Source of the DNA: a virus
Lineage: Duplodnaviria > Caudoviricetes
Direction: 5' to 3' (one strand)
DNA length: 64,000 nucleotides
IMG/VR virus record: IMGVR_UViG_3300031992_000077
Location: 13,329 to 77,328 of that record
Shown: piece after piece, positions 2,036 through 32,954 of the stretch
Layout: every line of letters begins with the position of its first letter
Position numbering within the stretch: the first letter of the stretch is position 1
Position numbers and translations under genes: made by a program
Notes under the pieces: model-generated
What the model saw: only the letters and a program-made list of their open reading frames with translations
The model's database searches: none
Told to the model about the DNA's origin: nothing

Positions 2036-3163
2036 ATGAAAGGTTATGTTGATGGTTTTGACTGGTATAACGCAGAAGCCATGAAATACTGGAGTATCCC
2101 TTCGTCTTATAGCGCAGAAAAAGGAAAAACTGAAATTAAAAATGCTATCTTTAGCGGACGTTATTATGGGGCACTTAAAGTAGACGGATATTATCAACGT
2201 CTTATTAAGGATGAAGACGGTAACTGTTTTATGGTTGCGCGCTCAAAAAATGTAAAAGGTGAACCAACTGATAAATACGACTGGGTTCCGCAGCTTCATA
2301 AATTTATGGATAGTTTACCTAATGGAACCGTTTTACTTAGTGAATGTTATTTACGTGATAATGAAGGTTCACAAAAAATAACTAGTCTACTGGGATGTCT
2401 TAAAGATAAATGTATAGAGCGGCAAAAGAAAGACCAGTGGCTTAGCTTTTATATTTTTGATATTTGTGCTTATAACGGTAAAAATTTAATTAATACTCCT
2501 TTTAAAGAAAGAATAGATATTTTAATAGACCTCTCATTTAAATATAAAACCGCGCCACTTAATAGTGTATGTTCTTGTATTACTTGGGCTGAATATTTTT
2601 ATGGAGAATCTTTATGGAACGAATTACAGAATTACCTAGCTAGCGGGCGAGAAGGTGTAGTAATTACACGAGAAGATTGTCCTATTTATTTTAAGCGCAC
2701 CCCAGCGCACATAACAATTAAAGTCAAAAAAGAATTACGAGAAAGCCTAGACTGCTTCTTTACAGGGCGCGCGACGCCTCCGACCAGAATATACAGTGGT
2801 ATTAGCCTGCCCAGTTGGGAATATTGGGAAGACCCGATTACAAAAGAAAAACTTAAGGGTAATTATTATAGAGAATATATGAACGGCGCGCCGATTGAGC
2901 CAGTTACTAAGTCTTATTTTAATGGAATGGCCGGCAGCCTAGAAATAGGAGTTCTTCGAGATGGAAAAGTATATCCTATTGGTTATCTTAGCGGTCTTAG
3001 TGACGAAATTAAAAGTAACTATAAAGAATATACTGGAAAGTGTTTAGAAGTTGGGGCAATGCAATTTACAGAAGGGAATAATGCATTAAGACACGCGAAA
3101 ATGATTAGACTTCGTCCTGATCTTAATGTAGAAGATTGTACTTGGGAGAAACTTGGATTGTGA
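2036..3163 (+). CDS. lig: ATP-dependent DNA ligase (no TAG)
   Basis: Motif I ALKVDG, YIFDI, EGVV, C-terminal OB-fold ...LRHAKMIRLRPD. Confidence 0.9.
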   Translation: MKGYVDGFDWYNAEAMKYWSIPSSYSAEKGKTEIKNAIFSGRYYGALKVDGYYQRLIKDEDGNCFMVARSKNVKGEPTDKYDWVPQLHKFMDSLPNGTVLLSECYLRDNEGSQKITSLLGCLKDKCIERQKKDQWLSFYIFDICAYNGKNLINTPFKERIDILIDLSFKYKTAPLNSVCSCITWAEYFYGESLWNELQNYLASGREGVVITREDCPIYFKRTPAHITIKVKKELRESLDCFFTGRATPPTRIYSGISLPSWEYWEDPITKEKLKGNYYREYMNGAPIEPVTKSYFNGMAGSLEIGVLRDGKVYPIGYLSGLSDEIKSNYKEYTGKCLEVGAMQFTEGNNALRHAKMIRLRPDLNVEDCTWEKLGL

Positions 3164-3534
3164 GTAGTTACGAAGAACAAGTGGCGCTTATATTAAAAAA
3201 AGAACGTATAAAATTTCAAAGAGAAAAAACCTATTCAGATTTAAAACACGGTAGGTTTAGATATGATTTTTATTTACCTACTTTAAATTTTTTAATAGAA
3301 TTAGATGGGTAGTTTCATTGGAATCCCATACGTGGAGAATAGGAGTTAAAAAAATAGCGCGAGCATGATAGATAGAAAAATTCCTATGCACTTGCGCATA
3401 ATATACCTTTATTTAGAATCCCGTATTGGGATTTAGATAGCGGCGTTATAAAAACTTTTAATGACCTTATTCAAAAAAAATATCATGTAGTTAATAAATG
3501 GCATAATGATAGAATAAAAGTCCCAAAAAAATAA
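3160..3534 (+). CDS. DUF559/Vsr-like PD-(D/E)XK endonuclease, 124 aa (4 TAG)
   Basis: GTG overlaps the ligase stop; RFRYDFYLP...IELDG(Q)FH...HDR(Q)KNSYALAHNIPLFRIPYW-...TAA. Confidence 0.75.
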
Positions 3535-3576
3535 AGTAATATCAAACTAAACTCTACTTTATGTAGAGGTGATGGT

Positions 3577-4074
3577 ATGAATATTTTTAAAGATATAGTC
3601 GATTGGTCGCTCTCAGATTTTGCAAGTTTTTTCGGCGGCTTAATTATATTAATTTATATTTTTTCTGAGGTCTTTAAAAAAGTCACAGAATAGACTAAAT
3701 GGGCTTAGGAAAGAAAAAAAGAAAGAGAAAAAGTAAAACGAGAAGCTGCACATGATTAGTATAAAGAATTTACAGACGAATTTGTAAAAGAATTTGTGCC
3801 TCCACTTGTAGCTCATTTTGAACAATCTGATAAAGAAATAATTAAAAAATTAGATCAACTAAATAATTCCTCAAATGATATGTTAAGAAAATAGATGACT
3901 GATATTTATTATAAGTATCTACCTTATAAAAAAATATTATAGTATGATAAAAAATGTTTTATTAAATTATATCATGACTACGGCGCGCAAGGTGGTAATT
4001 CATATGTAGATGAATTAAAAAAAGAAATAGATACTTGGGAAGTAGTTTTAACTGAGGAAGATTTACATTGGTAA
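3577..4074 (+). CDS. Holin-like membrane protein, 165 aa (5 TAG)
   Basis: GAGGTG RBS; N-terminal hydrophobic helix (FASFFGGLIILIYIFS); C-terminal LYHDYGAQGGNSYVDELKKEIDTW, matching the YxxxGGN pattern of lysis-cassette membrane proteins in Bacillota phages. Confidence 0.6.
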
Positions 4075-4081
4075 ATTTTAG

Positions 4082-4117
4082 AAGAGAAAAGTTATAATTT
4101 GACTTTTCTCTTTTTTT
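4082..4117 (+). terminator. Intrinsic terminator overlapping the next -35 box
   Basis: Stem AGAGAAAAGT/ACTTTTCTCT followed by a T-tract. Confidence 0.7.
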
Positions 4118-4127
4118 ATGTTATAAT
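4099..4127 (+). promoter_or_regulatory. SigmaA-type promoter
   Basis: TTGACT-17 nt-TATAAT with extended -10 TG. Confidence 0.75.
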
Positions 4128-4159
4128 ATAATTAGAAAAAAATAGGAGTAGTAGAATTT

Positions 4160-5233
4160 ATGGAATATATTATTTATTGTATTCTTGGAGTTTTACTATT
4201 ATTTTTTATTGTTCTCTTTTTTAGACAGCAAAAATAGAATAAATATTTATTAGAAGAAAATAAAAAAATAGAAGAAAATAAATTAGAAGAATTAAATTAG
4301 AAATATAATAAAAGAAAGGAGTTCCTCGAAGAAGATTATAATAAAAAATAGGAGTATCTTCAAGATTAGTATAAAAAAAGAGAAAATCAATTATATCAAG
4401 ATTTCTATCAAGCGCAATAGAATTATAATGAAATAACTGAAAATTTAAATTAGAATTTTAAAAGATATAAAGAGTCCTAGTATAAATTAATACAAGAAGA
4501 TTTAGAAGAATATAGTAAAAATGAAAAATTTAAAAAATAGATTGAAATAGAAAAAAATACTTAGGAACTTTATGAACAATATATAAAAAAACAAAAGCTA
4601 CTTGAAGAAGAATTTCAATCTAAAAAAGCAGAAATAGAATTTGAAATAAAAGAAACTTATGATGATGCCGCAGAAGCTGCGTTAGAATACTGCGATATAC
4701 TTGAAACTTTAGATGATTTTCGCAGACGGCGCGAGGTCGTAAATTCATAGGTATTGCGTGAAAAACAAATACAAGAAGAAAAAGATTTTTATCGTATTTG
4801 TCTTAGTTAGAATGATATAGAAGACCTATAGATTATAAAAGATATAGAACATAAATTTAATAATAAAGAAGTTCTTCATAAAGCGGCTTTTGACTGTTAT
4901 GTACGACGGCCGCTATCTGAGATGGAAAAACGAGTCTTAGGTAATAAAAAACCAAGTGGAATTTATATTATAACCTATATTCCTACTGGAGAAATATATA
5001 TAGGTCGTTCAACTGATATAGCAAATCGTTGGACAGAGCATGTAAAAAGTGCGTTTAATCTTGGTACTATCGCGCATAGCTCTCTCCATACAAAGATGGA
5101 AGAAAAAGGAATTTGGAATTTTACTTTTTAGATTTTAGAAGAAGTTTCAAAAGAAAAATTAAATGAAAGAGAGAAATATTGGATTAATTTATATGGCGCG
5201 ACAACGCTAATGAATTAGAAATAGGGTGGATAA
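4160..5233 (+). CDS. Membrane-anchored coiled-coil protein with C-terminal GIY-YIG nuclease domain, 357 aa (many TAG)
   Basis: AGGAG RBS; N-terminal TM helix MEYIIYCILGVLLLFFIVLFF; long E/K/Q-rich coil; SGIYIIT...IYIGRS...RWTEH; ends LMN(Q)K(Q)GG-TAA. Confidence 0.75.
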
Positions 5234-6286
5234 ATGAATTTAAGTAAAAAATAGAAAGAAATAGTTGAATCACCATATCCAAAAATAGTTGTTAATGCTG
5301 CAGCAGCTAGCGGAAAAACAGCTCTTATAGTAGAGCGAGTTAAATTTATGCTCTCACGCGGTTATATGCCAGAACGTATAGTTGTTATTACTTTTACTAC
5401 AGCCGCGGCAGATGAGATGAGAAAGAGAATTGGTTATGTTGATGGCTTATTTATTGGAACTATTCATGCTTATGCACTTTATCTTTTAAGTGTATATGGT
5501 TTAAATGAAAAGGCATTATAGTATATAAATGAAGAAAAATTTGATAGTCTTTTTGCTATGGTAAAAAGACATAGAAAATGCATTAAACAAGTAGATTATC
5601 TTATGGTAGATGAAGCTCAAGACTGTTCAGAGAATGAATGGGAATTTTTTGCGTTAATAGACCCTGCTGGGTTTTTCTATTGCGGTGACACAAAACAATG
5701 CATTTATGAATGGCGAGATGCAAGACCAGCTGATTTTTTAGAAATAGCGTCTTATGAAGAAGTACATACATATTCTCTTGATGAAAATTATCGGAATGGA
5801 TACTCCATTCTTAACTTTGCAAAAGATATTATAACTCGTACTAAATCTCATATGTATGATGACTCAATACCAATGCGTCATACCTCTGGAAAGGTCTAGT
5901 GGGTTGAATTTAACTTAGGTAATATAGCTAAATTAATTAAAAATAGTAAGGAACCTTATGGTAGCTGGTTCGTACTAGCGCGCACCAATGATTAGATAGA
6001 AAGTATATAGTATATCCTAGATTCATATGGAGTCCCAAATATTACCTTTAAACGTGGCGGGAAAAGCTTTGATGAATTAGACGCACTCACTAAAGAAGAT
6101 AAAGTAAAAGTCTTAACTATTCACACAGCGAAGGGACTTGAAGCGGATAATGTGGTCGTTATTGGGGCTAGACTATGGGGTGATGAGGAAATAAGACTAG
6201 CTTACGTAGCGGCAACTCGTGCGAGAGAAAATTTATATTGGGTATATAACAAAAAGAAAAAAGCTAATATAGAAAGTTGGGAATAA
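5234..6286 (+). CDS. UvrD/Rep-like SF1 helicase, compact, 350 aa (5 TAG)
   Basis: LSKK(Q) Q-motif, AAAASGKT Walker A, TFT, VDEAQD, GDTKQCIY, ENYR, LARTND(Q), TIHTAKGLE, YVAATRA. Confidence 0.9.
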
Positions 6287-6291
6287 AATAA

Positions 6292-6516
6292 ATGGAAAAG
6301 ATTAAATTAAGAAAAGAGATAAAATTTCCTGGAATTCCAATACATATAGAAGAAAATTATATTAAAAACGAAATAATTATTACTCATGCATATCGTTTTG
6401 ATGATGATTCTGGAACCCGAATCATGCTTAGAGGTGTATTACGCGCGGAAGATGGAGATGAAATTCCATATATTCAACCATATGAACTTAAGAATACAGG
6501 TGAAACTAATGTTTAA
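6292..6516 (+). CDS. Hypothetical protein
   Basis: 74-aa ORF tightly packed in the operon. Confidence 0.6.
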   Translation: MEKIKLRKEIKFPGIPIHIEENYIKNEIIITHAYRFDDDSGTRIMLRGVLRAEDGDEIPYIQPYELKNTGETNV

Positions 6517-6673
6517 AGTTAAATATAAATATACTGGTGATATTTATACTGTTCTAGATGTTAAATATGATGAATATTATTAGATTACTCGTTTTCTTAT
6601 GTGGGTTGATGATGAATGGAAATGGGTAAGAGCTGATAATTTTGTACCGCCAAACTATGAAGGAAGTCAATAA
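6509..6673 (+). CDS. Small hypothetical protein, 54 aa (1 TAG)
   Basis: MFKVKYKYTGDIYTVLDVKYDEYY(Q)ITRFLMWVDDEWKWVRADNFVP...-TAA. Confidence 0.6.
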
Positions 6674-6675
6674 AT

Positions 6676-6704
6676 TTGACTTCTTTTTTAATTTATGGTA
6701 TAAT
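6676..6704 (+). promoter_or_regulatory. SigmaA-type promoter embedded in a terminator hairpin
   Basis: TTGACT-17 nt-TATAAT with TG; the -35 box is the 3' arm of the GAAGTCAA/TTGACTTC stem. Confidence 0.7.
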
Positions 6705-6811
6705 ATTTATAGAAAATGAAAATAGAAAATTTTACCTATTAAAAATATTATAACTGGACTAAAATTATATACCTCATTTAATCCAGTTTCACTTATATAT
6801 GAGGTGATAAT

Positions 6812-7558
6812 ATGAGTAAATTAAAAAATGAAATTGGAAATACATATGGGTATTTAACAGTTATAGGGCGCGCGCCGAATAATAAAGATGGTCGCGCAAT
6901 GTGGAAATGTAGATGTAAATGTGGGAATGAAATTATAGTTTCTGGGAAACATTTACGTTCTGGTAATACTAAATCTTGCGGCTGTTATTAGAAAGAACGT
7001 GCGATTGAATCAAATCTTATTAGGGGCGGAGATTTAACTGGAAAAAGATTTGGTAAATTAGTAGTTTTATGTGAAGATGGTTTTATAACTGGTTCAAATG
7101 GAAAAAGACGTAGATTATGGAAATGTCAATGTGATTGTGGGAATATTTGTTCTATTCAACACCAATATTTAAATTATGGCGATACTACTTCTTGTGGTTG
7201 TATTAATTCAGTAGGAAATATGACAATTACAAGATTATTAAATAAATCTAATCATAAATATAAAGCAGAATATTCTTTTAAAGATTTTATTTGTAATACC
7301 AAACCATATCAATTCGATTTTGCTCTTTTAGATAATGACGATAATTTGTTAGGACTAATAGAGTATCAAGGAGATATTCATTTTGTATATAAAGATATTG
7401 GTTGGAATACTAAAGAATCTTTTGAAGAAAGAGTAAAACGAGATAAAGAAAAATTTAATTATTGTAAAGAACATAATATAAAATTATTTTATATTACATA
7501 TAAAGATGATATAGAAGAAAAATTATAGGAGATATTAAATGAGTTATACAGCAGATGA
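6812..7558 (+). CDS. Free-standing homing-endonuclease-like protein: two CxCxCG...SCGC repeats plus C-terminal PD-(D/E)XK domain (2 TAG)
   Basis: WKCRCKCG...TKSCGC and WKCQCDCG...TTSCGC repeats; FDFALL...LIEYQGDIH...KRDKEK; reads through TAG 7526 to TGA 7556-7558, overlapping the gyrB start. Confidence 0.75.
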
Positions 7559-9389
7559 TATAAAATCATTATCTTTTAGAGAAGGTGTAAGAACTCGTAT
7601 TCAAATGTATCTTGGTAGCGCTGATAATGAAGGTGCCTATCAAGCTTTTAAAGAAATTATAAATAATAGTACTGACGAAGCGCTTTGCGGTTATGGTAAT
7701 CAAATTGATATTTCAGTAGATGAAGAAAACAATACTATTGAAGTTCAAGACTACGGGCGTGGTGTTCCTTTTTTAGTAAAAGAAGATGGTACTAATGTTC
7801 TAGTAGATGTATACACAAAAGCCCACACCGGCGGTAAATTTGATGACCACGCATATAAAAATGTTGGAGGTCTTAATGGTGTTGGTGGAAGTTGCGTATG
7901 TTTAAGTTCTCTTGACTTTATGGTAGAGAGCTGTCGTGATGGTAAGATGGCGCGCGCTATGTTCTTTAAAGGAGAGCTAGTTAGTTATAATGAGTTTGAT
8001 ACTAAACATGCTAATGGTACTCTTGTTAAATTTACACCAGACCCCGAAGTTTTTAAAGATGAAAAGATTCAATATGATTATGAGAGAATTTGTAATGATA
8101 TAAAGAATATTTGTTATCTTTATAGCGGAATTACATTTAATGTATATAATCTTAAAACAGGCAAGAAAAATACATATTCCGCGCGCAATGGTATTAAAGA
8201 CTTTATCAAAGATAATTTGAGTACACCGCTTCATAAAACAATTCAATATGCTACTGCCACTGATGGTGAAGATAAAATTGAAATTGCTTTTCAATGGGGT
8301 GCAAAGCGCGAGACTTCTTATGTATTTGTTAACGGCTTGCTATGTCCTGAAGGAGGCAGTCCCATAACGGGAGCAAAAACAGCTATTACGCGTACATTCA
8401 ACTCCCTATCAAAACAAGACTTTGATGGTGATGCAATTCGTGGAAATTTATTCTATGTAATTAATTGTTCTGTTGCACATCCGTCTTTTGCAAATCAAAC
8501 AAAATCAAAAATCAATAATGCTAATCTGCGTACACTTGCTTCTAATGCTTTTAGCGATGCGCTGAAGTCAATGAAGATTAAACTTCCACAAGAGTTTGAT
8601 ACAATCGTAGAATTATTGAAAAAAATTGCAAAGGCAGAAGCTGCCGCAGAGAAGGCGCGCCAGCAAGTTCTTAATGCTTCAAAAGAAATTGAAAAGAATC
8701 AAAAGAAAAAAGTTTTTGCTTCTGATAAATTGAAAGATGCGGAGTTTCTTGGGCAGAACTCGACCCTTCTTATTGTTGAAGGTAATAGTGCTATGGGTGG
8801 TATGGCTCAGGCGCGTGATTACAAGAAGTATGGTATCCTGGCAATTAGGGGTAAGATTATTAATTGCTTGTCAAATCCCGAAGAAAAGATTTTTGAGAAC
8901 GAAGAAATTAAACTTCTTTTGAGTGCGATGAATATCGTGCCGGGGAAATATAATAGTTCAAAACTTCGTTACGGCCGCCTTGCAATCTGTACCGATGCAG
9001 ATAGCGATGGATACCATATTGGACTTTTAATTATGGCTGCACTTACCTATCTTGCGCCGCAGTTTATTAAAGAAGGACGCTTGTGCTGGTTGCGCTCACC
9101 ACTTTATATTGTCAATAATGGTAAGCAAGAAAGCTACTATTTCGATGATACAGAATTTAATGCTGTGCGCGGCAAGATTAAAGGTGAAGTAACGCGCGCA
9201 AAAGGTCTTGGTGAATTGCCGGCTGAAACCGCGCGAGCATCTATGTTTACTGAACAGTATCAACGTATGGAAGCTATGGAATATAGTGATGAAGCGTTAG
9301 GTTTATTGTATGATTTAATGGGCGAAGACGTAAAACTAAGAAAAGAATTTATTTTTAATAATATTGATTTTTCGGAGATAACGGAGTAA
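7539..9389 (+). CDS. gyrB: DNA gyrase/type IIA topoisomerase subunit B (no TAG)
   Basis: EIINNSTDE, DYGRGVP, HTGGKF, GGLNGVG, TOPRIM VEGNSA, IRGKIIN, DADSDG, KGLGE. Confidence 0.95.
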   Translation: MSYTADDIKSLSFREGVRTRIQMYLGSADNEGAYQAFKEIINNSTDEALCGYGNQIDISVDEENNTIEVQDYGRGVPFLVKEDGTNVLVDVYTKAHTGGKFDDHAYKNVGGLNGVGGSCVCLSSLDFMVESCRDGKMARAMFFKGELVSYNEFDTKHANGTLVKFTPDPEVFKDEKIQYDYERICNDIKNICYLYSGITFNVYNLKTGKKNTYSARNGIKDFIKDNLSTPLHKTIQYATATDGEDKIEIAFQWGAKRETSYVFVNGLLCPEGGSPITGAKTAITRTFNSLSKQDFDGDAIRGNLFYVINCSVAHPSFANQTKSKINNANLRTLASNAFSDALKSMKIKLPQEFDTIVELLKKIAKAEAAAEKARQQVLNASKEIEKNQKKKVFASDKLKDAEFLGQNSTLLIVEGNSAMGGMAQARDYKKYGILAIRGKIINCLSNPEEKIFENEEIKLLLSAMNIVPGKYNSSKLRYGRLAICTDADSDGYHIGLLIMAALTYLAPQFIKEGRLCWLRSPLYIVNNGKQESYYFDDTEFNAVRGKIKGEVTRAKGLGELPAETARASMFTEQYQRMEAMEYSDEALGLLYDLMGEDVKLRKEFIFNNIDFSEITE

Positions 9390-9390
9390 T

Positions 9391-9636
9391 ATGGAATATC
9401 CTAAATGTGGTTCATATAATGATTATAATAGAATAAGCTGTAAAAAATGTGGGTATAAAAGAGAAAAGATAGTAAAACTTAATAAAGGAGATATTTTTAT
9501 AATAGATGTCCATACTTTTTTAAGAGAAGAAATGTATAAAAATCCTATATTTAAAGTTTTAACAAGAGAAGAAATAATAAAAGAAAATATGTATATTCCT
9601 AATGAATATGGCTGGTTAGTAATAAAAATGGAGTAA
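9391..9636 (+). CDS. Hypothetical protein (N-terminal Cys cluster)
   Basis: GGAG RBS; 81 aa; PKCGS...CKKCG. Confidence 0.55.
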   Translation: MEYPKCGSYNDYNRISCKKCGYKREKIVKLNKGDIFIIDVHTFLREEMYKNPIFKVLTREEIIKENMYIPNEYGWLVIKME

Positions 9637-9640
9637 AATT

Positions 9641-9847
9641 ATGTTTAAAGAAGATTATGAAGATTATAATATCCATGATATTGAAATGGAGATAGCTCGT
9701 GAACCTCTTAAAATAATAGAACCATCATATGAATATTTATTAGGTTTTTATGATGGTATTTTTTGTGAGCAAGGCCAATTTGAACTAAGTTATGATTATT
9801 TAAAAGGATTTTATGAAGGCGTGAAAGTGAGGAAAAGTAATAGATGA
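9641..9847 (+). CDS. Hypothetical protein with internal YEYLLGFYDG/YDYLKGFYEG repeat
   Basis: GGAG RBS; 68 aa. Confidence 0.6.
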   Translation: MFKEDYEDYNIHDIEMEIAREPLKIIEPSYEYLLGFYDGIFCEQGQFELSYDYLKGFYEGVKVRKSNR

Positions 9848-10320
9848 ATGAAGATATAGTTTATTTTTCTTTTAATAATTGGTTTAGCGGTAGAGATTAT
9901 CCTATTGGAGATAAATACGAAGAATTAATAAATTCTCATAAATTTAGTAACGAAAATTGGGTTAAAGAAAATAAACTTGTTGTAGTAACTGGCAATATTG
10001 ATATGTCTGTTAATTGGTGTATTGCTGCACCAAGGAAATGGGTAGAAGAAAATTTGCCAGAACTTTTAACTAATAAGGAATATAATTATGATATTATTAC
10101 TTATTATAAAGGTAAGGAAACAGTAACCACATATACCAAAAAATATAGTGATTTTGTATACCCTGGAACTCCTTGGGAATGTAAATATGGTATGCCTTTT
10201 AAAGAATATGATGAAGAAGCAGCAGGTGTGTATTATATAGAAGAGGACGAGTGGGAATGGAATGATGATGAAGAGGACGAAGAAGAATGGAATGATGATG
10301 AAGAGGACGAAGAAGAATGA
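9844..10320 (+). CDS. Hypothetical protein with acidic tail
   Basis: 158 aa; ATG overlaps the previous stop. Confidence 0.7.
   Translation: MNEDIVYFSFNNWFSGRDYPIGDKYEELINSHKFSNENWVKENKLVVVTGNIDMSVNWCIAAPRKWVEENLPELLTNKEYNYDIITYYKGKETVTTYTKKYSDFVYPGTPWECKYGMPFKEYDEEAAGVYYIEEDEWEWNDDEEDEEEWNDDEEDEEE
10256..10320 (+). repeat. 30-bp tandem duplication encoding WNDDEEDEEE twice
   Basis: AATGGAATGATGATGAAGAGGACGAAGAAG repeated. Confidence 0.85.
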
Positions 10321-10490
10321 TTAAATATATCTGTGATAAATGTGGTAAAGAAATAGATAAATTTTTATTAAGAGATTGTATGATTATGTCAGTTACTGGA
10401 CGTTATGCAAGATATGATAAAAGTGAAATCATATTATGCGAAAATTGTAAGGAAAATTTCAATAATTGGATAGGTGATACAGATGAGTGA
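10317..10490 (+). CDS. Small zinc-ribbon protein, 57 aa
   Basis: MIKYICDKCGK...ILCENCKENF; below the ORF-track size cutoff. Confidence 0.6.
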   Translation: MIKYICDKCGKEIDKFLLRDCMIMSVTGRYARYDKSEIILCENCKENFNNWIGDTDE

Positions 10491-12837
10491 ATTAAAACCA
10501 GTAATTGAACAATCTTTCGCGCAATATGCTGGCATGGTAATTCAATCCCGTGCGCTTGTTGACGCGCGCGATGGGCTCAAACCTTCTGCACGCCAAATCT
10601 TCTATTCAATGCTCCTTCATAAACTCACTCATAATAATCCCTATAAGAAAACTGCTAATGCTGTTGGTATGGCCATGGCAGATTTCTATATTCATGGCGA
10701 TTCGAGCTGTGAAGGAATTATTATGCGCGCCGGTCAGAACTTTGCTATGCGTTATCCGCTCGTAGATGTAAAAGGTAACTCTGGCTCTCTTATTGAAAGT
10801 GGTAACTGGGCCGCTATGCGTTATACGGAGAGCCGTTTGTCTGCGCTTTCTAATATTCTCTTTACAGATATTGATAAAGATACCGTAACGGAATGGCGCG
10901 ACAGCTACGATAATACAAAACAATACCCAGCGGTTCTTCCGTCAAAAGGTTTTTATAATCTTTGTAATGGTACAAGTGGTATCGCAGTAGGTCTTGCAAG
11001 TTCTATTCCGCAGTTTAATTTAAAGGAACTTAATAATGCGCTTATTAATCTTATTCAAAATCCAGATTGTGATTTTGATGATATTTACTGCGCGCCTGAC
11101 TTTGCTACTGGCGCGGTTCTACTTAATGCAGATGAAGTAAAAGAGAGTTTACGTGCTGGTAACGGGCCGGCTTGTAAATTGAGAAGTGTTGTTGAATTTG
11201 ATACGGCTGAAAGATGTTTTGTAGTAAAAGAAATTCCTTATTCTGTTTATACAAATACTATTTGTAAACAGCTTGAAGAACTCATAGAATCAGAAGAGAA
11301 CCCTGGAATTGAACGTTTTAATGACTTAACTGGCGCGACGCCTTTGATTAAGATTTACCTTGCAAAAAAAGCAAATCCAGATAAGGTATTAAAGTATTTG
11401 TATAAAAATACTTCACTCCAGTATTACTATGGCATTAATCTTACTATGCTTGATGGTGGTAAATATCCTAAAGTATTTACATGGCGCGAAGCTCTTCAAG
11501 CGCATATTGACCACGAAAAAGTTGTATATCGTCGTGGCTTTGAACATGATTTGAATAAGATGAAGTTTCGTGTTCATATTATTGAAGGGCTCTTGATTTG
11601 TATCGCGCGCATTGAAAAGGTCATTCAGACAATTAAATCTTCGAGTTCTACCGCAGAAGCAAGCGCGCGCCTTCAAAAAGAATATCTTCTTGATGCCGAC
11701 CAAGCAAAGGCAGTCCTAGACTTAAAACTTAGCCGATTAGCGCACCTTGAAGTAACTAAGCTGAACGGCGAAAAAAATGACCTACTCGAAAAAATTGGTG
11801 CAATCGAACAAATTTTAAATGATGAAATCCTATTTAATAATGAGCTTATTAAGGGTTGGAAGGAAGTTGCCGCAAAATATGGCGACGCGCGCCGTACACA
11901 CATATTAAATATCTCGAAAGAAGATGAAGAGGAACCGACTGAGGTTCGTAATCTAATTCTTAACTTTACAAATAAGGGCGGAATTTATGTAACTGAAAGC
12001 TCTTCTCTCTATACACAGCGTCGAGGCGGAGTTGGAAGTAAGTTTAAAATGGAGAAAGGAGAATATATTGTTGGTACTGAAACCGGTGATAATACCGATA
12101 TAGTTCTATTATTCTCCGATAAAGGAAATTTCTTCCAAATTAAAATGAGTGAATTTCCAGTAAATGAAAAAACTTACATAACTCAATTTATTACTATGAC
12201 GGCGACAGAATCTATTTGTAACGCCGCAGTTTATGCGAAGAATGAAAATAAGAATATTTATTTTATTACAAAGAATGGTTTACTTAAAAAATCTCTCTTA
12301 TCTGAATACTACCTTAAACGTGGTAATAGCGCCCGCGCCATAAATCTTGACAGTGATGATGAAATAGTAAGTGTATTCTTTGGAAATGATAACCTTGATT
12401 GTGGTATTCTTAGTAGCGATGGAAACTTTATCATGTTTAAAACTGATGATGTAAAGCCTATTGGTCGTATAGCACGCGGTGTAAAAGCTATTAAACTTAA
12501 TGACGGAGCTTTCGTACAAGATGCTCGAATGATACCAAAGGATACTAAAACTATTATCTCTGTAACAAAGAAAGGTCTAACGAAACAAACAAATATAGAT
12601 GAATTTTCTTATACAAATAAAAATACAAAAGGTTCTAAAATCCAAGGTTTAACAACAGATGATATGGTAGTTTCTTTTGATGCACTTAGCGCGGAGACTG
12701 AAATTATTGTTACATCTACTACATCACAGATACGAGTCGCAGCGGCGGAAATCCCAATGCTTTCTCGTTCAGCGCAAGGAGTTCATGTAATAAAACTTAA
12801 ACCGTTGGAACAAGTAATTCAGATAGAAAAAATTTAA
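10483..12837 (+). CDS. gyrA: DNA gyrase subunit A (no TAG)
   Basis: DGLKPSARQI, IHGDSS, AAMRYTE active site, C-terminal beta-pinwheel repeats with GyrA-box-like QRRGGVG. Confidence 0.93.
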   Translation: MSELKPVIEQSFAQYAGMVIQSRALVDARDGLKPSARQIFYSMLLHKLTHNNPYKKTANAVGMAMADFYIHGDSSCEGIIMRAGQNFAMRYPLVDVKGNSGSLIESGNWAAMRYTESRLSALSNILFTDIDKDTVTEWRDSYDNTKQYPAVLPSKGFYNLCNGTSGIAVGLASSIPQFNLKELNNALINLIQNPDCDFDDIYCAPDFATGAVLLNADEVKESLRAGNGPACKLRSVVEFDTAERCFVVKEIPYSVYTNTICKQLEELIESEENPGIERFNDLTGATPLIKIYLAKKANPDKVLKYLYKNTSLQYYYGINLTMLDGGKYPKVFTWREALQAHIDHEKVVYRRGFEHDLNKMKFRVHIIEGLLICIARIEKVIQTIKSSSSTAEASARLQKEYLLDADQAKAVLDLKLSRLAHLEVTKLNGEKNDLLEKIGAIEQILNDEILFNNELIKGWKEVAAKYGDARRTHILNISKEDEEEPTEVRNLILNFTNKGGIYVTESSSLYTQRRGGVGSKFKMEKGEYIVGTETGDNTDIVLLFSDKGNFFQIKMSEFPVNEKTYITQFITMTATESICNAAVYAKNENKNIYFITKNGLLKKSLLSEYYLKRGNSARAINLDSDDEIVSVFFGNDNLDCGILSSDGNFIMFKTDDVKPIGRIARGVKAIKLNDGAFVQDARMIPKDTKTIISVTKKGLTKQTNIDEFSYTNKNTKGSKIQGLTTDDMVVSFDALSAETEIIVTSTTSQIRVAAAEIPMLSRSAQGVHVIKLKPLEQVIQIEKI

Positions 12838-12854
12838 TGTATAATAATTAAAAT

Positions 12855-12883: not shown

Positions 12884-12952
12884 ATATATAGAAAGTTGAG
12901 AGAGGAAATCTCAATTTGATAGAAAAATAAAAATATAAGGAGAAAAAAAGTT

Positions 12953-13219
12953 ATGAAGTTGACAGAAAAGCAGGCAATGGTATTCAATTATGTTAAGGAG
13001 AACGGTGGTCGTGTTGCGATGGAGGAGCTTTGTGCTGCTCTGGGTAGTGATGCTAAGCACTTGAATCCCGTTGTTACTGGTCTCGGTGTTAAGGGCGAGC
13101 GCGCTAAGGGTCTGTTGGATTATGAGAAGATTCCTGTGGAAGGTTCTGATAAGCCGGCAAAGTACGTGTTCCTGACCGAAGCTGGTAAGACTTTCGTTCC
13201 TAGTGATGACGAAGAGTAA
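12953..13219 (+). CDS. Small winged-helix-like DNA-binding protein, probably highly expressed
   Basis: LTEKQAMVFNYVKENGG...helix-turn-helix...YVFLTEAGK wing pattern; AAG/GAG-rich codon usage; strong RBS. Confidence 0.6.
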   Translation: MKLTEKQAMVFNYVKENGGRVAMEELCAALGSDAKHLNPVVTGLGVKGERAKGLLDYEKIPVEGSDKPAKYVFLTEAGKTFVPSDDEE

Positions 13220-13331
13220 GTAATTAATTCCATAGATATATAATATGGAATAGGAGCTAATCCTATTCTATATTCATATATAAGGACCAGTAGAATAAAA
13301 ATAAAATAAGATAAAAAATGGAGAGAATTAA

Positions 13332-14267: not shown

Positions 14268-14280
14268 GAGGTAATGCAGT

Positions 14281-24265: not shown

Positions 24266-25335
24266 TAATTGGTTTATGGGATGCAGATTTTATGAAATAT
24301 AAGTAGCCAGTTTTCAATTTAGAGCTTATGAAACTGGCTACTTATTATAAATAGAAAAAAGATATAGTTAAATTAGCCCCAGTATTAGACCCATATAAAT
24401 ATACAAAATTTATTTATCGTAAAGATTGGGATGATGGAGATTATCCTAAAGAAATTTTTTTAGATAATGTGACCTACGGCGGGCGCGCCTTTGGAGAAAA
24501 ATATAAATCATTAGGTATAAATATAGAATCTGTAACACCAGATACATATTTATATTAGAGTTTTATTAATGAATTTCATGGTGCGCAATTAAATCATTTT
24601 AAAATGATGTAGAATTCAGCCCATATTAGACTTTCATTAGATGGGGAAACTATTTGGAAAGATTATAATAAAAGTTTTAATTTTACTAATACAACACGTA
24701 GTTTTTTCTTTCATGATTATGATTTGAATAAAATATAGAATAGTGCAGAAGAAATAAAAAAAATAATTGAAAGTGACGGCAGTAAAGTTAGTCGAGTTGT
24801 TGGTATGAAATTTCCAGTATAGGTTAATAATGAGATAGATTTGGCTCGGTGGCTAGCATTACCAGGCGCGCAAGTATACTATTCAATTTAGTATAATGGG
24901 ATTATGAATGATAAAGCTTTTTAGGTCTTTTTGTCAGGAAGTAAATTATAGAGCCGTAACTTAGACTATATTGTAACTTCTTCACTATCGGGAGAGGATG
25001 ATTTTGTCAAGAACGGACTACCAATAATTTATAAATAGCTCTTAATTTCATAGATGCATAAAAAAAGAATTTTACTTAAATATGAAGATGATTTTTTCTA
25101 GGATAAAAGATGGGAAGATTTAATTACTTATTTCAATGAATATAATTCAGCAGATGTTACGCGTAAATTTTCAAAAACATTATTTTACTATACTAGCCAT
25201 ATTTTAGATAAATAGTCTATATATAAACCTAAATTTTCACGAGACTACATAGCTGAACTCTTTGAGATGGTAAGAGAGAAAAATTATGATGTTTTTAAAA
25301 TGTTTTATGAAAATATAGGAGGAGATTTTATATGA
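24262..25335 (+). CDS. Hypothetical protein, 357 aa, N-terminus resembling phage radical-SAM-associated proteins (13 TAG); absent from the ORF track
   Basis: TTG with GGAGG RBS; MIIGLWDADFMKYK(Q)PVFNLELMKLATYYK(Q)...YGGRAF...TPDTYLY; no TAA/TGA in frame until 25333. Confidence 0.75.
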
Positions 25336-25535
25336 CAAATTTAGAAATCAAACAAAGGATTGATAGCAATAATAAAATAATACAAGATGCTTTTAGTCCT
25401 AATCAATTTGTTCTTAATAATGTAATAAAAAATTTATTGAAGGAGAATGAAGACCTTCAAAAACAATGCACGCATAGCTTTGTTGATGGCTATTGTGAAT
25501 ATTGTTATATGGAGGAACCAAAAGAAGATGATTAA
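25332..25535 (+). CDS. Small coiled-coil/zinc-finger protein
   Basis: LQKQCTHSFVDGYCEYC; GGAGG RBS. Confidence 0.65.
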   Translation: MTNLEIKQRIDSNNKIIQDAFSPNQFVLNNVIKNLLKENEDLQKQCTHSFVDGYCEYCYMEEPKEDD

Positions 25536-25725
25536 AATGTATAGCACTCATTGTCCGAAATGTAAAGTTCTTTCAATGAAACTTGCACAAAAAGGAATTG
25601 ATTTTACTGAAATTGATGATATGGAAGAAATGCAAAATCTTGGTTTGAAAAGCGCCCCAGCACTTAATATAGATGGCAAGATTTTAGATTTTAACGCGGC
25701 GATTGCGTGGGTAAGGGAGCAGTAA
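25528..25725 (+). CDS. nrdH: NrdH/glutaredoxin-like redoxin
   Basis: MYSTHCPKCKVL...SAPALNIDG. Confidence 0.8.
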   Translation: MIKMYSTHCPKCKVLSMKLAQKGIDFTEIDDMEEMQNLGLKSAPALNIDGKILDFNAAIAWVREQ

Positions 25726-25726
25726 T

Positions 25727-27649
25727 ATGAATATTAATATTAGACTTGATAAAAATTTTACTACACAATTTAATAAACTTCAAGAAAAATACGGAGAAGA
25801 ATTCGCTAAACTTAATGGCTTAAGTGATGAATAGCTTTCCTATACAGACTTTATTTCTAATTTTATTGAATCTGAGACTGTAGCCGATGCATCTGTGGAT
25901 AGTAATGCTAATGTAGGTCATAAAGATATTGTGACACTACTTAATGAAATGCCTAAACCGCATAGAAAACTTTTGGCTCTTCGTAAGATTTATTATGAAA
26001 TGAATAAGACTTATGGTTTTAAAGTGGCCAATGATTGGCTTGAAAAAGAATGGTCGCGCGCGCTTTATATGCATGATGCTGATACTTCTACTTTTAAACC
26101 ATATTGTTATGCTTACGACCTTAAAGATTTGGCAGAACGTGGTTTATTCTTTCTTGAAGGTTTTAATGCAGAACCTCCAAAGCATTTGGGTACTTTTATT
26201 GACTTTGTAAAAGAATTCATTAGCTATAATGCCAATAGAACATCTGGTGCTTGTGGTTTACCTAATCTTATTCCTTATATGTACTATTTTTGGAGCCGTG
26301 ATGTAAAAAATAATTATTATACTCGCGACCCAGAAAGCTATGCAAGACAACATATTCAGCGCTTTATCTATGCAGTAAATCAGCCATGCGTGCGTGATGG
26401 TATGCAGAGCGCGTTTACTAATACCTCTATTTTTGACCATGAATATTTAATGGCGCTTTTCGGCGGTTCAATTTTCCCTGACGGTTCATTTATGGTTGAT
26501 GAAATTGAAGGAATTATGGATTTCCAAAAACTTTTTATGGAAGTTATGAGCGAGATTCGTGAACATAATATGTTTACTTTCCCAGTGAATACTATTTCAC
26601 TTCTTAAAGTAAATGGTGAGTTTAAAGATGAAGAATTCGCACGTTGGGCCTGTAAACATAATATGAAATGGAGTGATAGCAATATTTTTGCAGACAGTAG
26701 TGTTAATTCTCTTTCTAATTGTTGTCGTTTAAAGAGCAATATTGAAGATTTGGGTTATTTTAATTCGATTGGCTCTACTGCGCTTCGTGTTGGTAGCGTA
26801 AAGGTATCTACTATTAATCTCGCGCGCCTTGCTTATGAAAATAAGACAGAAAAAGAATATCTTAAAGCTCTTCAAGAAATTACGGAACTTAATCTTAAAG
26901 CGCTCGATTGCGTCCGCCATATTATTCAGCGCAATATTGAGAAAGGACTTCTTCCTAATTACTGCGATGGCTTAATTGATATTAATACACAATATAATAC
27001 TATTGGTGTACTTGGCATTTATGAAACTATGCGCGCGTTTGGATATACAAAACAAGACGAATTTGGCAACACTTATTATACCGAAGATGCTTATAAATTT
27101 GGAGAAAAAATCTTTAAAGTCATTCATAATACTAAAGACCTTTTTAATATTGATAAAGATTATAGGATTAATCTAGAGGCGGTTCCCGCGGAGCAGGCTG
27201 CGGTAAAAATGCAAAAAGCAGATGAAATGTTATATCCTGAAGTAGTAATAAAAGATTTGCCTTTATATGGTAATCAATTCCTCCCACTTGGTATTAAAGC
27301 AACTCTTCAAGAACGAGTCCGTATTGCTAGCACTTTTGATAATTATTGTAATGGCGGTTCTATTTTACACGTAAATATTGAAGCACCATTTACTAATTTC
27401 AATCAAGCCTGGAAGATGTTAAATTATATCACAGATGCAGGCGTTACTTATTTTGCTTTCACAACAAAAATACAAGCTTGTAAAAATAACCATGCTTTCT
27501 TTGGAAAAGTTTGCCCAGTATGCGGTGAACCAGTAGCTACAGAATATAGTCGTATAGTAGGATTTTATACTCCAGTTCGTACCTATTCAAAAGAGCGCAA
27601 AGCTGAATGGCAGATGCGTGAGTGGGAGAATGTAAATAATGAAAATTAA
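25727..27649 (+). CDS. nrdD: Anaerobic (class III) ribonucleotide reductase, 640 aa (1 TAG at codon 36)
   Basis: FTFPVNT, SNCCRL, TIGVLG, EAVPAE, GGSILH, CPVCG, glycyl-radical motif RIVGF; true start is ATG 25727. Confidence 0.92.
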
Positions 27650-28145
27650 ATATTTAGTTGAAGAAGATTTTGTCAATTATAAAAAACCTTCACTATTTAT
27701 TGGTTTTCCTGCTTGTACATTTAAATGCGGCGAAATGAATTGTTAGAATAGTTCATTGGCACATGCCGAAGATATTGAGATTTCTAAAGAGGACATTTGT
27801 GAAAGATATATTAAAAATGAGATTACTGAAGCTTTTGTATTTGGTGGGCTAGAACCTTTTGATAGTTTTATGGATTTAATAAGTCTTATAGATTGTATTA
27901 GGAATAAATATAATATAGAAGATGATATTGTAATTTATACTGGATATACAAAAGAAGAATTAAAAAAAGGTCAGTTCGGAAAAGATAATGAAATATCAAG
28001 AATTAATTATAAATATTTAACAGATACATATAAAAATATTATAATTAAATTTGGTCGCTATTATCCAAATCAAAGCGCGCATTTTGACAAAGTTCTTGGT
28101 GTAAATCTTATAAGTGATAATCAATATGCGGAGAAAGTATCATAA
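27639..28145 (+). CDS. nrdG: NrdD activase (radical SAM), 168 aa (1 TAG)
   Basis: [10 protein letters not shown](Q)N; FGGLEPF; IYTGY; KFGRY. Confidence 0.85.
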
Positions 28146-29377
28146 TGGAAAATATTAGAGAATTAGATAATTTTATTAATTCAACTCTTGAATTTGAACA
28201 TGGATATCTTGCGAAGATATTAGAATTAGAAGAAGAGCGCCAAAATAGAAACATTGAGTTAATTGCAAGTGAAAATTATACTTCAGATGCCGTTCGTGCG
28301 GCAATGGCTTCTTGCCTTACTAATAAATACGCAGAAGGATATAGCGGCAATAGATTTTATGGCGGTTGTGAATATATTGATAAAATAGAAGATTGCTGTA
28401 AATAGACTTGGTAGAAAGTATTTAATACAAACTATAGTGTAAATGTATAGCCACATAGCGGAACACAAGCCAATCTCGCGGTTTACAATGCATTACTAAA
28501 TCCAGGGGATACAATATTGTCTCTAAATTTAAACAGCGGCGGGCATCTGTCTCATGGCTCTTTGGCCAATTTAAGCGGAAAAATTTATGATGTATATTAT
28601 TATAATTTAGATAAAAATGGCTATATTGATACTGTAAATATGGTAGAATGCCTTAAAAAATATCATCCAAAATTGGTTATTGCTGGCGCATCAGCATACC
28701 CGAGACAAATTTATTTTTCTAATATTAAAAAAATATTAGAAATTTTTGCTGATAATGAATCAATAGAATAGCCATATTTTATGGTTGATATGGCGCATAT
28801 CGCTGGTTTAGTCGCAACTGGCTTTCACCCTTCTCCCTTTGGGTACGCAGATGTAATTACAACCACAACGCATAAAACCTTGCGCGGACCACGTGGAGGA
28901 TTAATTTTTTGTAAACCAGAATTAGAAAAGAAAATTAATAGCGCAGTATTCCCAGGTATGCAAGGTGGACCGCTAGAACATGTTATTCTTGCTAAAGCAG
29001 TCTGCGCGGAAGAGTGTTTATAGCCAAATTATAAGGAATATATAAATTAGGTTATATTAAACGCGGCGGCTATGGCAAACGAATTTAAAAATAATGGATA
29101 TGATTTAGTTAGTAATGGCACAGATACGCATTTATTTTTAATTGATTTTTCTAAAACACACCCGAATCTTACAGGGCGCGCCGTGTAGGAAGAATTAGAT
29201 AAATATAATATTACATTAAATAAAAATTGTGTACCTAATGAAAAGCGAAGTCCTTATTTAACTAGTGGTATTCGTATTGGAACACCGGCTATGACGACAC
29301 GCGGCTGGAAAGAAGAAGACTTTATTAAATGCGCCAATTATATAGATAACATAATAAAAAATTTGACTAATAAATAA
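28145..29377 (+). CDS. glyA: Serine hydroxymethyltransferase, 410 aa (7 TAG)
   Basis: ELIASEN, NKYAEGY, NV(Q)[51 protein letters not shown]. Confidence 0.93.
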
Positions 29378-29391
29378 AAATATGATATAAT
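29363..29391 (+). promoter_or_regulatory. SigmaA-type promoter for the peptidase
   Basis: TTGACT-17 nt-TATAAT with TG. Confidence 0.75.
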
Positions 29392-29413
29392 ATAAATAGT
29401 GAGGAGGAATACT

Positions 29414-30247
29414 ATGAAAGAATTTAAAATTGGAGTCGTCCCCGCTAAATTTGATTTTCGAGATTATAAAATAAAATATAAAGGTATAGCAACCGCAGCA
29501 AACTTTCCAAAATAGTTTGAACTATCTATGCCAAAAGTAAAGTATTAGGACCAAGTAGGCAGTTGCGTAGCTTTCTCCTTATCCTTACTTTTTGAATATT
29601 TTAATAAACGAGAAACAAAAACAGATGTCACCATGAGTACATCTTATATTTATGGAAACCGTAGAAATAGTACTTGGAAAAAGCCTGGTATGCGAGTTAG
29701 GGATGCTTTAAAAAACGGGTGTGAATATGGAGACGTTAGTAAAGACCTAATGCCTAAAAATATTGAAGTCCCGGAAGCTATTACTTATTTTGAAAAAGAA
29801 GGTCTAAAATTAAAAGAAATAGGCCAAATAAATCGTATTAAGAAATTTTTCAAAATTACCTCTGCCAACGCGATGAAAGAGTGTTTAATGAATTACGGCC
29901 CTATTCTTGTTATAATAAAATGGTATAGTAATAACGTAGTAGATGGACAAGCTATATTAAAATCTGGCAATAATAAAAAATACTATGATGGATAGCATTG
30001 TATGGTATGCTACGGTTGGAATGAAAAAGGTTGGAAAATTTAGAACTCTTGGGGTATCGGCTGGGGAAAAATGGGTAAAGCTATTTTACCTTTTGACACT
30101 AATTTTGTAGAAGTTTGGGGAGTAATTGATTAGGAAAATTTAAATAATAGTAATTTAGAAATTATTACTCCATGTAAAAACAATACTTCTGCATTAATAG
30201 CGAAAGGAATGAATAATATTGTAAATTTAATACTAGGAAGAAGATAA
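29414..30247 (+). CDS. Papain-like cysteine peptidase (family C1A), 277 aa (5 TAG)
   Basis: VKY(Q)DQVGSCVAF (compare papain VKNQGSCGSCWAF), G(Q)HCMVCYGW, I(Q)NSWGIGWG. Confidence 0.85.
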
Positions 30248-30936
30248 TGATTAAAGTAGAAAATATAGAAATTTTTAATTTCATTGGAGCTATGAGAGGA
30301 TTACGAAATCCAATGAATAGTTGGGCAAAAAATGATACAATAGAAATTATGGGACATTTAGAGCAACCTTTGTATAGCTCTAATACTAATGAGCCTATAA
30401 TTGGCCCCAATGATTTACAACTCGCGCAACGTATGTTAGGTGGCGGCGCCGAAGAGTCTAAGTTTATGCGGCAGATAATGATATGTATGGATATAGACGC
30501 TCCGTTATTCTGGTGGAAGGAAATGGATACTTATAAAGTTGGTACAGTTGCTAATTCTTGTAGTACGATGCATAAGCTTACGAGTAACGAAATTGGCGCG
30601 CAGAACTTTTCTTTTGATATGGAAATTACAGATTTTCCTGAAGAATATCAAGAATTAATAAGCATGATAAGAGTAAATTCAATTCATTACTGTGAACAAC
30701 TTCGTGAAGCATATAATAAAACAAAAGATAAACGCATATGGCGCGCGCTCATAGAAATCTTGCCTGAAGGATGGAATCAGCGCCGTACTTGGACCGCCAA
30801 TTACCAAGTATTAAGAAATATCTATTTCTAGCGCAGAAATCATAAATTAGATGAATGGAGAGAGTTCTGTAAGATAATTGAAGAATTGCCTTACGGAAAA
30901 GAACTAATTTGTTACGAAAAAGAGAAAAAGGAGTAA
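30247..30936 (+). CDS. thyX: FAD-dependent thymidylate synthase (ThyX-like), 229 aa (1 TAG)
   Basis: AMRGLRNP, KFMRQI, APLFWWKEMDTYK, NSCSTMH, ILPEGWNQRRT, NIYF(Q)RRNHKLDEW. Confidence 0.8.
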
Positions 30937-30942
30937 ATTATT

Positions 30943-31311
30943 ATGACAATTAATTACAAAGATAAATTTTATATTTATCATCCAGACGGGAAATTTACAG
31001 AAGAACAACTAAAAAAGATACTCGATGCAGCGTATGAAATGGGAAAAAAAGAAGGATATAATGATGGATATGAGCAAGGAAAAAAGAATCATTTTACTAT
31101 AACTTACCCATCTTATCCATGGAGTACCCCATGCTATACTAATCCTAGTATTACATGTACAGACCCTACTAAAATTCCTTCTTCTATCACAACTGCCACT
31201 TCAATCATTAAAACTAATAAAGATTATTCAATAACTACGAAAAATGATGTCCCATTTACGTTAACTAATAATACTTGTAGGGAGTTTAAATATAATGGAA
31301 CAGAAGAATAA
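30943..31311 (+). CDS. Hypothetical protein (Pro/Thr-rich C-terminus)
   Basis: AAGGAG RBS; 122 aa. Confidence 0.6.
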   Translation: MTINYKDKFYIYHPDGKFTEEQLKKILDAAYEMGKKEGYNDGYEQGKKNHFTITYPSYPWSTPCYTNPSITCTDPTKIPSSITTATSIIKTNKDYSITTKNDVPFTLTNNTCREFKYNGTEE

Positions 31312-32227
31312 TACTATTGAAGAAACCAAAGAAGTAAATCCAATAATCGATAGTTTCGAAGCAATTTCTAAAATTATGGTAGGGGAAGAAGGAACAGAAG
31401 ATATAACTACTATGTTCGGCGCACTTCTTTCTATGCCAGATGAAGAATTTAAAGAAGTGTCGTCTATTCTTCTCGATGAAATCATTCGTTCTTTAAATAC
31501 TCCCGCAGATAGAATTGCTCTTGTTGCGGCAATGACTTCTAATGGCTATACTGGTGATGATTTAACCGATACATTTCAAGAGCTTTGTAAAGAAATTGAT
31601 ACACAACTCACAGAACTTTCACAAATTAAACGTGATTGGCTAAAACAGTTAATGGGTGCGGTTACTAATGCAATTAATGAAACAGAAGGAATTTCTAAGA
31701 AATATGTAAGAGTTGCGTATGAAAAATGCCATGAAGACGCGAAAACCCCTGCATATGCACACGAAACTGACTCTGGAATGGATGTGTACGCTCTTGAAGA
31801 GATTACTCTCGCGCCCGGTGAACAGAAAACTATTCCTATTGGTATAAAAGTCGCATTGCCCGCTGGATACGAGCTATAGGTGCGTCCAAAAAGTGGCCTT
31901 AGTGCGGGAACTAAGTTGCGCGTAGCTAACGCTCCAGGAACAGTTGATGCTGGTTATAGAGATGAAATTAAAGTTATAATAGAAAACGTAGAACCCCCTA
32001 TTAAAGATATAACTTACGAACCAGTAATGAATACAGAAAATGGACAAATAGACCATTTGCAGATAACTTCTATTCTTTATGGAAGTTCTTATACTATCGG
32101 TAAAGGTCAAAAGTTCGCACAGTTAGTATTATCCGAAGTTCCTAAAGCAGTATTATACGAAGTAGAGAAAGTAGGTGAAATTGGCGAAGACCGCGGAGGC
32201 GGATTCGGCAGCACCGGGAAGTTCTAA
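31295..32227 (+). CDS. dut: Trimeric dUTPase with about 145-aa N-terminal helical extension, 310 aa (1 TAG)
   Basis: DSGMD, GYEL(Q)VRPKSG, GTVDAGYRDE, KFAQLV, RGGGFGSTG. Confidence 0.9.
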
Positions 32228-32228
32228 T

Positions 32229-32954
32229 ATGGCTTCCATAAATCTTACTACTATCTAGGAGTAGCTTCCAGAAGGTTGGAAGGTAATATCTACACAATAT
32301 AAAAACCTAGATACTGAAATGGAATTTGAGTGTGCAGCCGGCCATAAAGTTTTTTCTACTTGGAAGAAGATGCGAACACGTGCCGAATGCCCTATATGTA
32401 AAGAGAAAGCGCCGCTCGTAGATACTACTATAATTCCTAAAAAGAAAGGAATTTATCGTACCATTGGAATAGACCAGGCAACTCATATAAGCGGTTATTC
32501 AGTATATGATGGGAAAGAGCTCATTAAATTTGGAACTTTTACAGTAAATGAAACCAATGAAATAGAGCGCGATAATATAATAAAAATGTGGTTATGCTCT
32601 ATTATAAATAACTGGCAACCAGATGTAATCGGTCTCGAAGGAATTCAACTTCAGCAAAACGCCGCTCGTGGTATTGGGGTCACTACCTTTGAAACTTTAG
32701 CGCGATTACAAGGTATACTTATGGAAGCTTGTTATGAACAAAAAACATAGTTTGTGATATGCCCAACGAATACATGGCGCGCGCATTGTAAAGTTAAAGG
32801 TTAGACCCGTGAAGCTAAAAAGAATTCAATGAGATAGTTAGCGCGAGAATGGCATAATATTAATGTAAGCGAAGATGAAGCAGATGCCATCGGAATTGGA
32901 AAGTACGTTGCAGAAACATATGCTCTTACACATCAAGTCCAAAATTGGGAATAA
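32229..32954 (+). CDS. RuvC-like Holliday junction resolvase with N-terminal zinc ribbon, 241 aa (5 TAG)
   Basis: CAAGH...CPIC; IGIDQAT, IGLEG, DEADAIGIG. Confidence 0.8.

Follow-up and report, generated by a model that had tools for sequence, protein, structure and literature searches.

Recoded phage clades in animal guts were described by Borges et al., who found the replication machinery in the standard code and the structural and lysis genes recoded, with the homing endonucleases within early regions recoded as well, and who gave codon statistics per gene family; in their model, which traces to earlier crAss-like and Lak phage work cited there, infection switches from the standard to an alternative code (bioRxiv 10.1101/2021.08.26.457843). 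For the 'Agate' clade (~127 kb; cattle, pig and tortoise gut; codes 11, 15 and 4), the published gene-level analysis is that of TGA-recoded phages (bioRxiv 10.1101/2021.08.26.457843). Dual coding in crAss-like phages was reported with Mgcod (bioRxiv 10.1101/2022.06.29.495998), and code 15 in such phages has been validated by proteomics (PMC9523058). The subject here is how in-frame TAG codons are distributed over the genes of a 64,000-nt stretch of DNA (the window), which covers bases 13329-77328 (~83%) of one 77,328-bp virus contig (GC ~0.33), in particular in its plus-strand arm (2036-32954). Gene coordinates, whether plain or w-prefixed, are positions in the window. The contig represents part of the genome of a siphovirus of the sheep/cattle gut, and its TAG distribution matches the published early/late code-switch model; the concept as such is already published.

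Compared with the phages of Borges et al., nothing differs in kind: TAG is read as glutamine with a phage suppressor tRNA (here found in relatives), replication is in standard code and the structural genes are recoded, early-region homing endonucleases are recoded too, both codes occur in one clade, and the recoded codon is rare as a stop. Agate is likened to this lineage by size, habitat and code mix, the complete relatives here being 121-127 kb long (with direct terminal repeats and 12-23 tRNAs), from the ruminant gut, and the relatives comprising standard-code and TAG-recoded members and one that may be TGA-recoded; in both, the recoded codon is absent from replication genes, but the published gene-level set is TGA-recoded, whereas the phage here is TAG-recoded. 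Like the dual-coded crAss-like phages, it has genome parts that are readable in the standard code and parts that need TAG as glutamine; unlike them, it belongs to a siphovirus lineage with DnaE, gyrase and a 2636-aa tape measure, and the mixing is gene by gene instead of in large blocks. The initial annotation was right to see a likeness to published code switching, but the gene-by-gene resolution that it claimed as new is not, as Borges et al. already have gene-family statistics and recoded early endonucleases. What is new here is a three-tier gradient across 14 lineages, together with a set of conserved host-type promoters, each of which heads genes of different tiers.

In this phage TAG stands for glutamine (genetic code 15). 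Read in the standard code, the minus-strand half shatters into short open reading frames (ORFs), while reading TAG as sense gives long genes, i.e. those of the tape measure, Dit, a 1723-aa Tal-like protein and further tail proteins. In alignments with standard-code relatives, the TAG positions correspond to Q at 182 of 549 aligned positions, with 44 for the runner-up residue, and in single genes the TAG columns are >80% Q in the relatives (Sak4 42/48, NrdG 18/19, dUTPase 16/19, and 49 of 52 homologues for the one TAG of the RecJ-like exonuclease). The share of CAA+CAG in TAG-free genes (3.1-3.8%) equals that of TAG+CAA+CAG in TAG-rich genes. Profile matches cross in-frame TAGs in RecJ_OB, NrdD, dUTPase, SHMT, Flg_new and the tape measure, and no gene requires TAG as a stop: past each TAG that would close a standard-code ORF, the profile match runs on.

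With TAG read as glutamine, 386 of the 904 Gln-type codons across the 77-kb contig are TAG, yet none of them lies in the seven core genes of the plus-strand arm. These encode an ATP-dependent DNA ligase (2036-3163, 0/7; PHROG 114, Pfam DNA_ligase_A_M), GyrB (7539-9389, 19 Gln codons) and GyrA (10474-12837, 26 Gln codons; PHROG 543 and 551 for the pair), an SSB (13332-14267, 0/13), a DnaB-like helicase (15888-17450, 20 Gln codons) and a primase (17440-18492, 8 Gln codons; PHROG 19 and 47 for the pair), and a 1323-aa DnaE-type polymerase (20294-24265, 42 Gln codons). Together they hold 0/135 TAG (P=2e-33 against the genome rate of 0.427, P=2e-15 against the plus-arm rate of 0.222), and the whole GyrB-GyrA region (7539-12837), including three small ORFs between the two genes, has 0/47. 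All core replication genes stop at TAA or TGA and are therefore read alike under the standard code of the host and code 15. Directly downstream of dnaE, a gene for a 357-aa protein (24262-25335, plus strand) uses TAG for 13 of its 15 glutamines (13 TAG, 2 CAA, 0 CAG; Fisher P=4e-11 against DnaE). The initial annotation had listed these seven genes as TAG-free, with roughly 40 Gln in DnaE, and had given the same 13 of 15 for the gene that follows; all of this was borne out. Its proposal of a binomial null for the TAG fraction per gene also led to a clear answer, the departure being strong: the 50 genes with five or more Gln are heterogeneous at G=317 (49 degrees of freedom, P=7e-41), and a two-class binomial mixture (TAG fractions 0.036 and 0.576) beats a single class (Bayesian information criterion, BIC, 243 vs 434).

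The partition is graded, not absolute, and it is not simply one of replisome versus late genes. The RecJ-like gene, NrdD, NrdG, dUTPase and the ORF at 30247-30936 each contain one essential TAG, which the profile matches cross. Many TAGs are found in several genes of DNA and nucleotide metabolism (UvrD-like helicase 5/8, Sak4-like 3/7, SHMT 7/11, RuvC-like 5-8 TAG, dNMP kinase 8/11), and all three homing endonucleases are TAG-rich. The contrast drawn originally, between a TAG-free replisome and TAG-rich late genes, thus stands for the core and for the tail, but fails for the UvrD-like, Sak4-like, SHMT, RuvC and dNMP kinase genes. In this genome alone a three-class mixture is not favoured by BIC, and the middle tier is visible only at the family level.

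At that level, a DnaE query led to 65 IMG/VR loci (53-93% identity), from which counts per gene were made in 15 clearly recoded loci and counts per tier in 14 dereplicated recoded lineages. In the former, the numbers of TAG among Gln-type codons are 1/639 for DnaE, 1/307 for DnaB, 2/152 for primase, 0/103 for GyrA and 2/134 for SSB, versus 76/182 for the gene after dnaE and 72/132 for RuvC. In the latter, the core tier has 5/1312 (0.4%), the middle tier (RecJ, NrdD/G, dUTPase and Sak4) 55/812 (6.8%) and the high tier 139/323 (43%), with P<1e-17 for all pairwise differences between lineages that are not fully independent of each other. The TAGs of the middle tier occupy lineage-specific positions in conserved Gln columns, and neither the number nor the position of the single TAGs is conserved; they are not positionally conserved regulatory sites. 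It follows that changes from CAA or CAG to TAG arise readily in the arm and get removed from the core genes. In the clade of the window, which holds only TAG-recoded members, DnaE has remained TAG-free while diverging to 80% identity, and RecJ and NrdD have acquired lineage-specific TAGs. Judged from these sequence comparisons, this indicates purifying selection against TAG in the core replisome, and as the avoidance persists across recoded relatives with as little as 52% identity in DnaE, selection keeps these genes readable in the standard code.

The explanation considered most probable (roughly 0.68) is that the core replisome is kept TAG-free by purifying selection because it is needed before a suppressor converts the cell, where the timing is what we infer. 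The replisome proteins would be expressed from host-type promoters at a stage when RF1 of the host still stops translation at TAG, and a tRNA-Gln-like CUA suppressor of the phage, presumed to be encoded in the tRNA array just beyond the left end of the contig, would later convert the cell. Genes that are not needed before conversion (i.e. those of homing endonucleases, recombination and resolution enzymes, SHMT, and tail and structural proteins) could then carry TAG at 43-58% of their Gln positions and would yield full-length products only after conversion, and the middle tier (~7%: RecJ, NrdD/G, dUTPase, Sak4) would tolerate an occasional TAG. The initial annotation had likewise proposed that the replisome is translatable by the unmodified host, which is supported as far as reading in the standard code goes; that everything else waits for the suppressor was overstated, given the single-TAG middle tier and other TAG-free genes (the glycosyltransferase and the MCP-like gene of the relative G002).

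With 0 TAG in the two diagnostic genes of at least 18 family members, the standard code is what one expects of the hosts; standard-code relatives seldom stop at TAG (30/480). The host of the phage itself is probably a rumen Bacillota. A tRNA(CUA) is present at 7136-7212 in G002, a 95% complete member of the TAG-only clade of the window, and another in the relative G005; the 5' half of the former looks similar to bacterial tRNA-Gln. No theta or HDV-like ribozyme near the CUA tRNAs reached the Rfam thresholds. With 90 in-frame TAGs in the tape measure, read-through must become near-complete, with RF1 outcompeted or disabled, and general leakiness can therefore not explain the avoidance in DnaE.

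Seven strong extended -10 promoters of the sigma70/sigmaA type (TTGAnn-N14-TGnTATAAT) are predicted on the plus strand, at 1918, 4099, 6676, 12855, 15304, 20234 and 29363. All sit in gene gaps or at the last codons of a gene (span 1918-29391) and none in the late modules, and in relatives the motif is conserved on the DnaE strand (127 of 132 matches). Every promoter unit mixes TAG-free and TAG-rich genes; the P6 unit, for example, has 0 TAG in DnaE, 13 in the next gene, 0 in thioredoxin, 1 each in NrdD and NrdG, and 7 in SHMT. The interleaving of TAG-free and TAG-rich genes in an operon-rich arm, noted at the outset, is thus real and occurs within units that share a host-type promoter, which fits a separation at the level of translation rather than of transcription. 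Contigs over the SSB/Sak4 unit (13000-15240) have a word depth of 60-200, versus 3-30 elsewhere in the arm, in two metatranscriptome libraries from a single sheep sample, where such contig depths cannot rank genes; the RNA-library contigs on the arm show presence only, not gene rank or timing. The DNA run is flat over the arm, and both RNA contigs stop at 15239 and continue in adapter sequence.

A bolder and rather doubtful extension is that TAG density acts as a three-step translational timer within polycistronic early transcripts, with one host-type promoter class and the order of the proteins set by their amber count. If true, the replisome would come with 0 TAG, nucleotide supply and RecJ with ~1, and the endonucleases, recombination and resolution enzymes and SHMT with many, and the rising suppressor would stage DNA metabolism gene by gene without a transcriptional cascade.

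Several observations count against the explanation by early need of the replisome. Scans of the whole 77-kb contig for tRNAs and Rfam families gave 0 tRNA and no suppressor; the homologous tRNA region lies off the contig, and the lack is attributed to truncation of the fragment, not to absence of the suppressor. No CUA tRNA was seen in the relatives G003 and G004, the release-factor profile PF00472 was not found in five relatives, and the promoters are assigned by consensus and conservation only. On the late strand, the gene at 33721-34425 (1/15) and the glycosyltransferase (0/10) are TAG-poor, as is the MCP-like 350-aa gene of G002 (0/15), so that timing alone is insufficient as an explanation. 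Finally, the code state is scattered on the DnaE tree, where well-supported branches force at least 7-8 changes (an approximate number, because the coding-density classification mislabels some mostly-TAG-free loci as standard code), which leaves room for module exchange.

Under such exchange, the replication module would be TAG-free because it is swapped between recoded and standard-code members, in the latter of which a TAG-containing copy fails, and no timing would be involved. The family does mix codes, and the standard-code locus L047 adjoins the clade of the window on the DnaE tree. The pattern, however, follows single genes and is conserved: in 13 recoded loci the 357-aa gene, which lies between dnaE and nrdD, is rich in TAG and the genes flanking it are not, and within the TAG-only clade it was RecJ and NrdD, not DnaE, that gained TAGs. 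Exchange as the cause is accordingly considered unlikely. The gradation into three tiers would also fit a constitutive but imperfect suppression, in which TAG is purged only where truncation or low yield is costly (long replisome enzymes and very abundant proteins), and the MCP-like late gene of G002 and the likely tail tube gene (2/7 TAG) are what one would expect from it. Yet TAG is most abundant in the longest genes (90 in the tape measure, 44 in the Tal-like gene, with 14/21 in the portal and 14/28 in the TerL of G002), whose full-length products leaky suppression would practically never yield, so this too seems improbable. That mutational drift or local base composition produced the contrast by chance, which the initial annotation had argued against, can be dismissed almost with certainty. 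TAG fraction does show a weak negative relation to G+C content at third codon positions (GC3; Spearman -0.24, P=0.09), but GC3 accounts for only 12% of the deviance (DnaE has a GC3 of 0.243, the following gene 0.213), out-of-frame TAG in DnaE is normal (25 and 28 per 1000 codons) and in TAG-free genes generally is as elsewhere, and chance would have to produce both the observed heterogeneity and its recurrence in 14 lineages.

The 357-aa gene starts with a TTG that overlaps the dnaE stop, and it directly follows dnaE in 48 relatives. The model of its protein (predicted local distance difference test, pLDDT, 90) is alpha/beta and matches the radical-SAM enzymes MiaB, RimO and AprD4 at Z 10-11; a Foldseek search of the PDB with this model gave nothing clear. 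The protein has no conserved Cys and therefore cannot bind the usual iron-sulphur cluster. A beta (sliding) clamp, which would have placed a part of the replisome in the TAG-rich class, is ruled out by the alpha/beta, radical-SAM-like model.

As for the rest of the plus-strand arm, the ligase is followed by a TAG-rich insertion (3136-7558), with an HNH endonuclease (3136-3534, 4 TAG), a protein with one transmembrane helix (3577-4074, 5 TAG), a GIY-YIG endonuclease (4160-5233, 15 TAG), the UvrD-like helicase (5234-6286, 5 TAG) and a second HNH endonuclease (6812-7558, 2 TAG). Among the small proteins, only that of 3577-4074 has a predicted transmembrane helix, at residues 10-30 and with a charged region after it; its gene belongs to the ligase unit and not to a lysis cassette. 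It is probably the gene called holin-like in the initial annotation, a putative function; the TAG-richness claimed there for holin-like and minor tail genes holds for the tail genes. The SSB has two OB folds and a disordered C-terminal tail (AlphaFold pLDDT 86), and Foldseek matches its model to the SSB of Thermus and Deinococcus (E 1e-7 to 3e-8, probability 1.00). It is followed by the Sak4-like AAA_24 annealing protein (14281-15249), whose 3 TAG are in columns that are Gln in relatives; the RecJ-like exonuclease (18489-20231) has its TAG at codon 487, within the RecJ_OB domain. Nucleotide metabolism and late DNA functions lie within 25447-32954: thioredoxin (0 TAG), NrdD (1), NrdG (1), a C1 peptidase (5), dUTPase (1), SHMT (28145-29377, 7), the ORF at 30247-30936 (1) and the RuvC-like resolvase (~32229-32954, 5). 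The PHROG label 'methyltransferase' for 28145-29377 was replaced by SHMT, and a ThyX label for 30247-30936 is without Pfam support. The clustering of SHMT, anaerobic ribonucleotide reductase, thioredoxin, dUTPase, a PHROG 6721 protein and the dNMP kinase (window 25447-32227 and L001:1556-2080) hints at a dedicated or modified nucleotide pathway.

The minus strand carries the tail and structural module (32991-63890), in which the tail genes have an overall TAG fraction of 0.53-0.80: the tape measure (50743-58653, 90/171), Dit (49685-50641, 8 TAG), the Tal-like protein (44497-49668, 44/69), a 1032-aa tail protein (41399-44497, 20/25) and the gene at 38105-41386 (18 TAG). The portal and TerL genes of G002 are recoded as well. 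No lysis gene was securely identified.

The sequence was found in sheep, bovine and rumen gut sequencing runs, examined as metagenome and metatranscriptome contigs, and the closest DnaE among GenBank phages is SPbeta YorL (37%). The contig is collinear with 7335-83932 of its closest relative, G001, and with ~7000 to 82583 of G002, with its edge adjoining their tRNA arrays; compared with complete relatives, it is missing the tRNA array, the genes for head and packaging, and a ~30-kb stretch of small genes. The contig end (window 64000) and G001:83932 share the same homologous break point inside an MCP-like gene, which suggests an assembly-breaking feature there, and this gene probably has its C-terminal part in the ORF at 63711-63890. 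One relative, L024 (IMGVR_UViG_3300031992_000100), has a coding density of 0.86 that goes up to 0.96 with TGA as a sense codon, and it may be TGA-recoded, which would give three codes in one DnaE family. As for the tRNA regions of relatives, the complete G005 has a ROOL RNA (L109:13152-13759; RF03087, 268 bits) next to its array of 23 tRNAs, two tRNA genes (G001:1419-1510 and G002:1187-1348) fit in ARAGORN only with anticodon-region insertions of 14 and 87 nt, and the RtcB-like and RNA ligase genes of G002, near its tRNAs, are TAG-free. Upstream of its terminase, G002 encodes a 451-aa protein with a sigma-factor-like C-terminus and 7 TAG; L101:9830-11185 and L101:2307-3359 are the coordinates given for this gene and the MCP-like one.

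The locus is thus a clean, statistically strong and evolutionarily replicated case of amber avoidance in a recoded ruminant-gut phage. With standard-code and TAG-recoded members side by side, the family suits tests of code change, and because TAG-free and TAG-rich genes are interleaved behind identical promoters, the hypothesis of translational timing can be put to a direct test.

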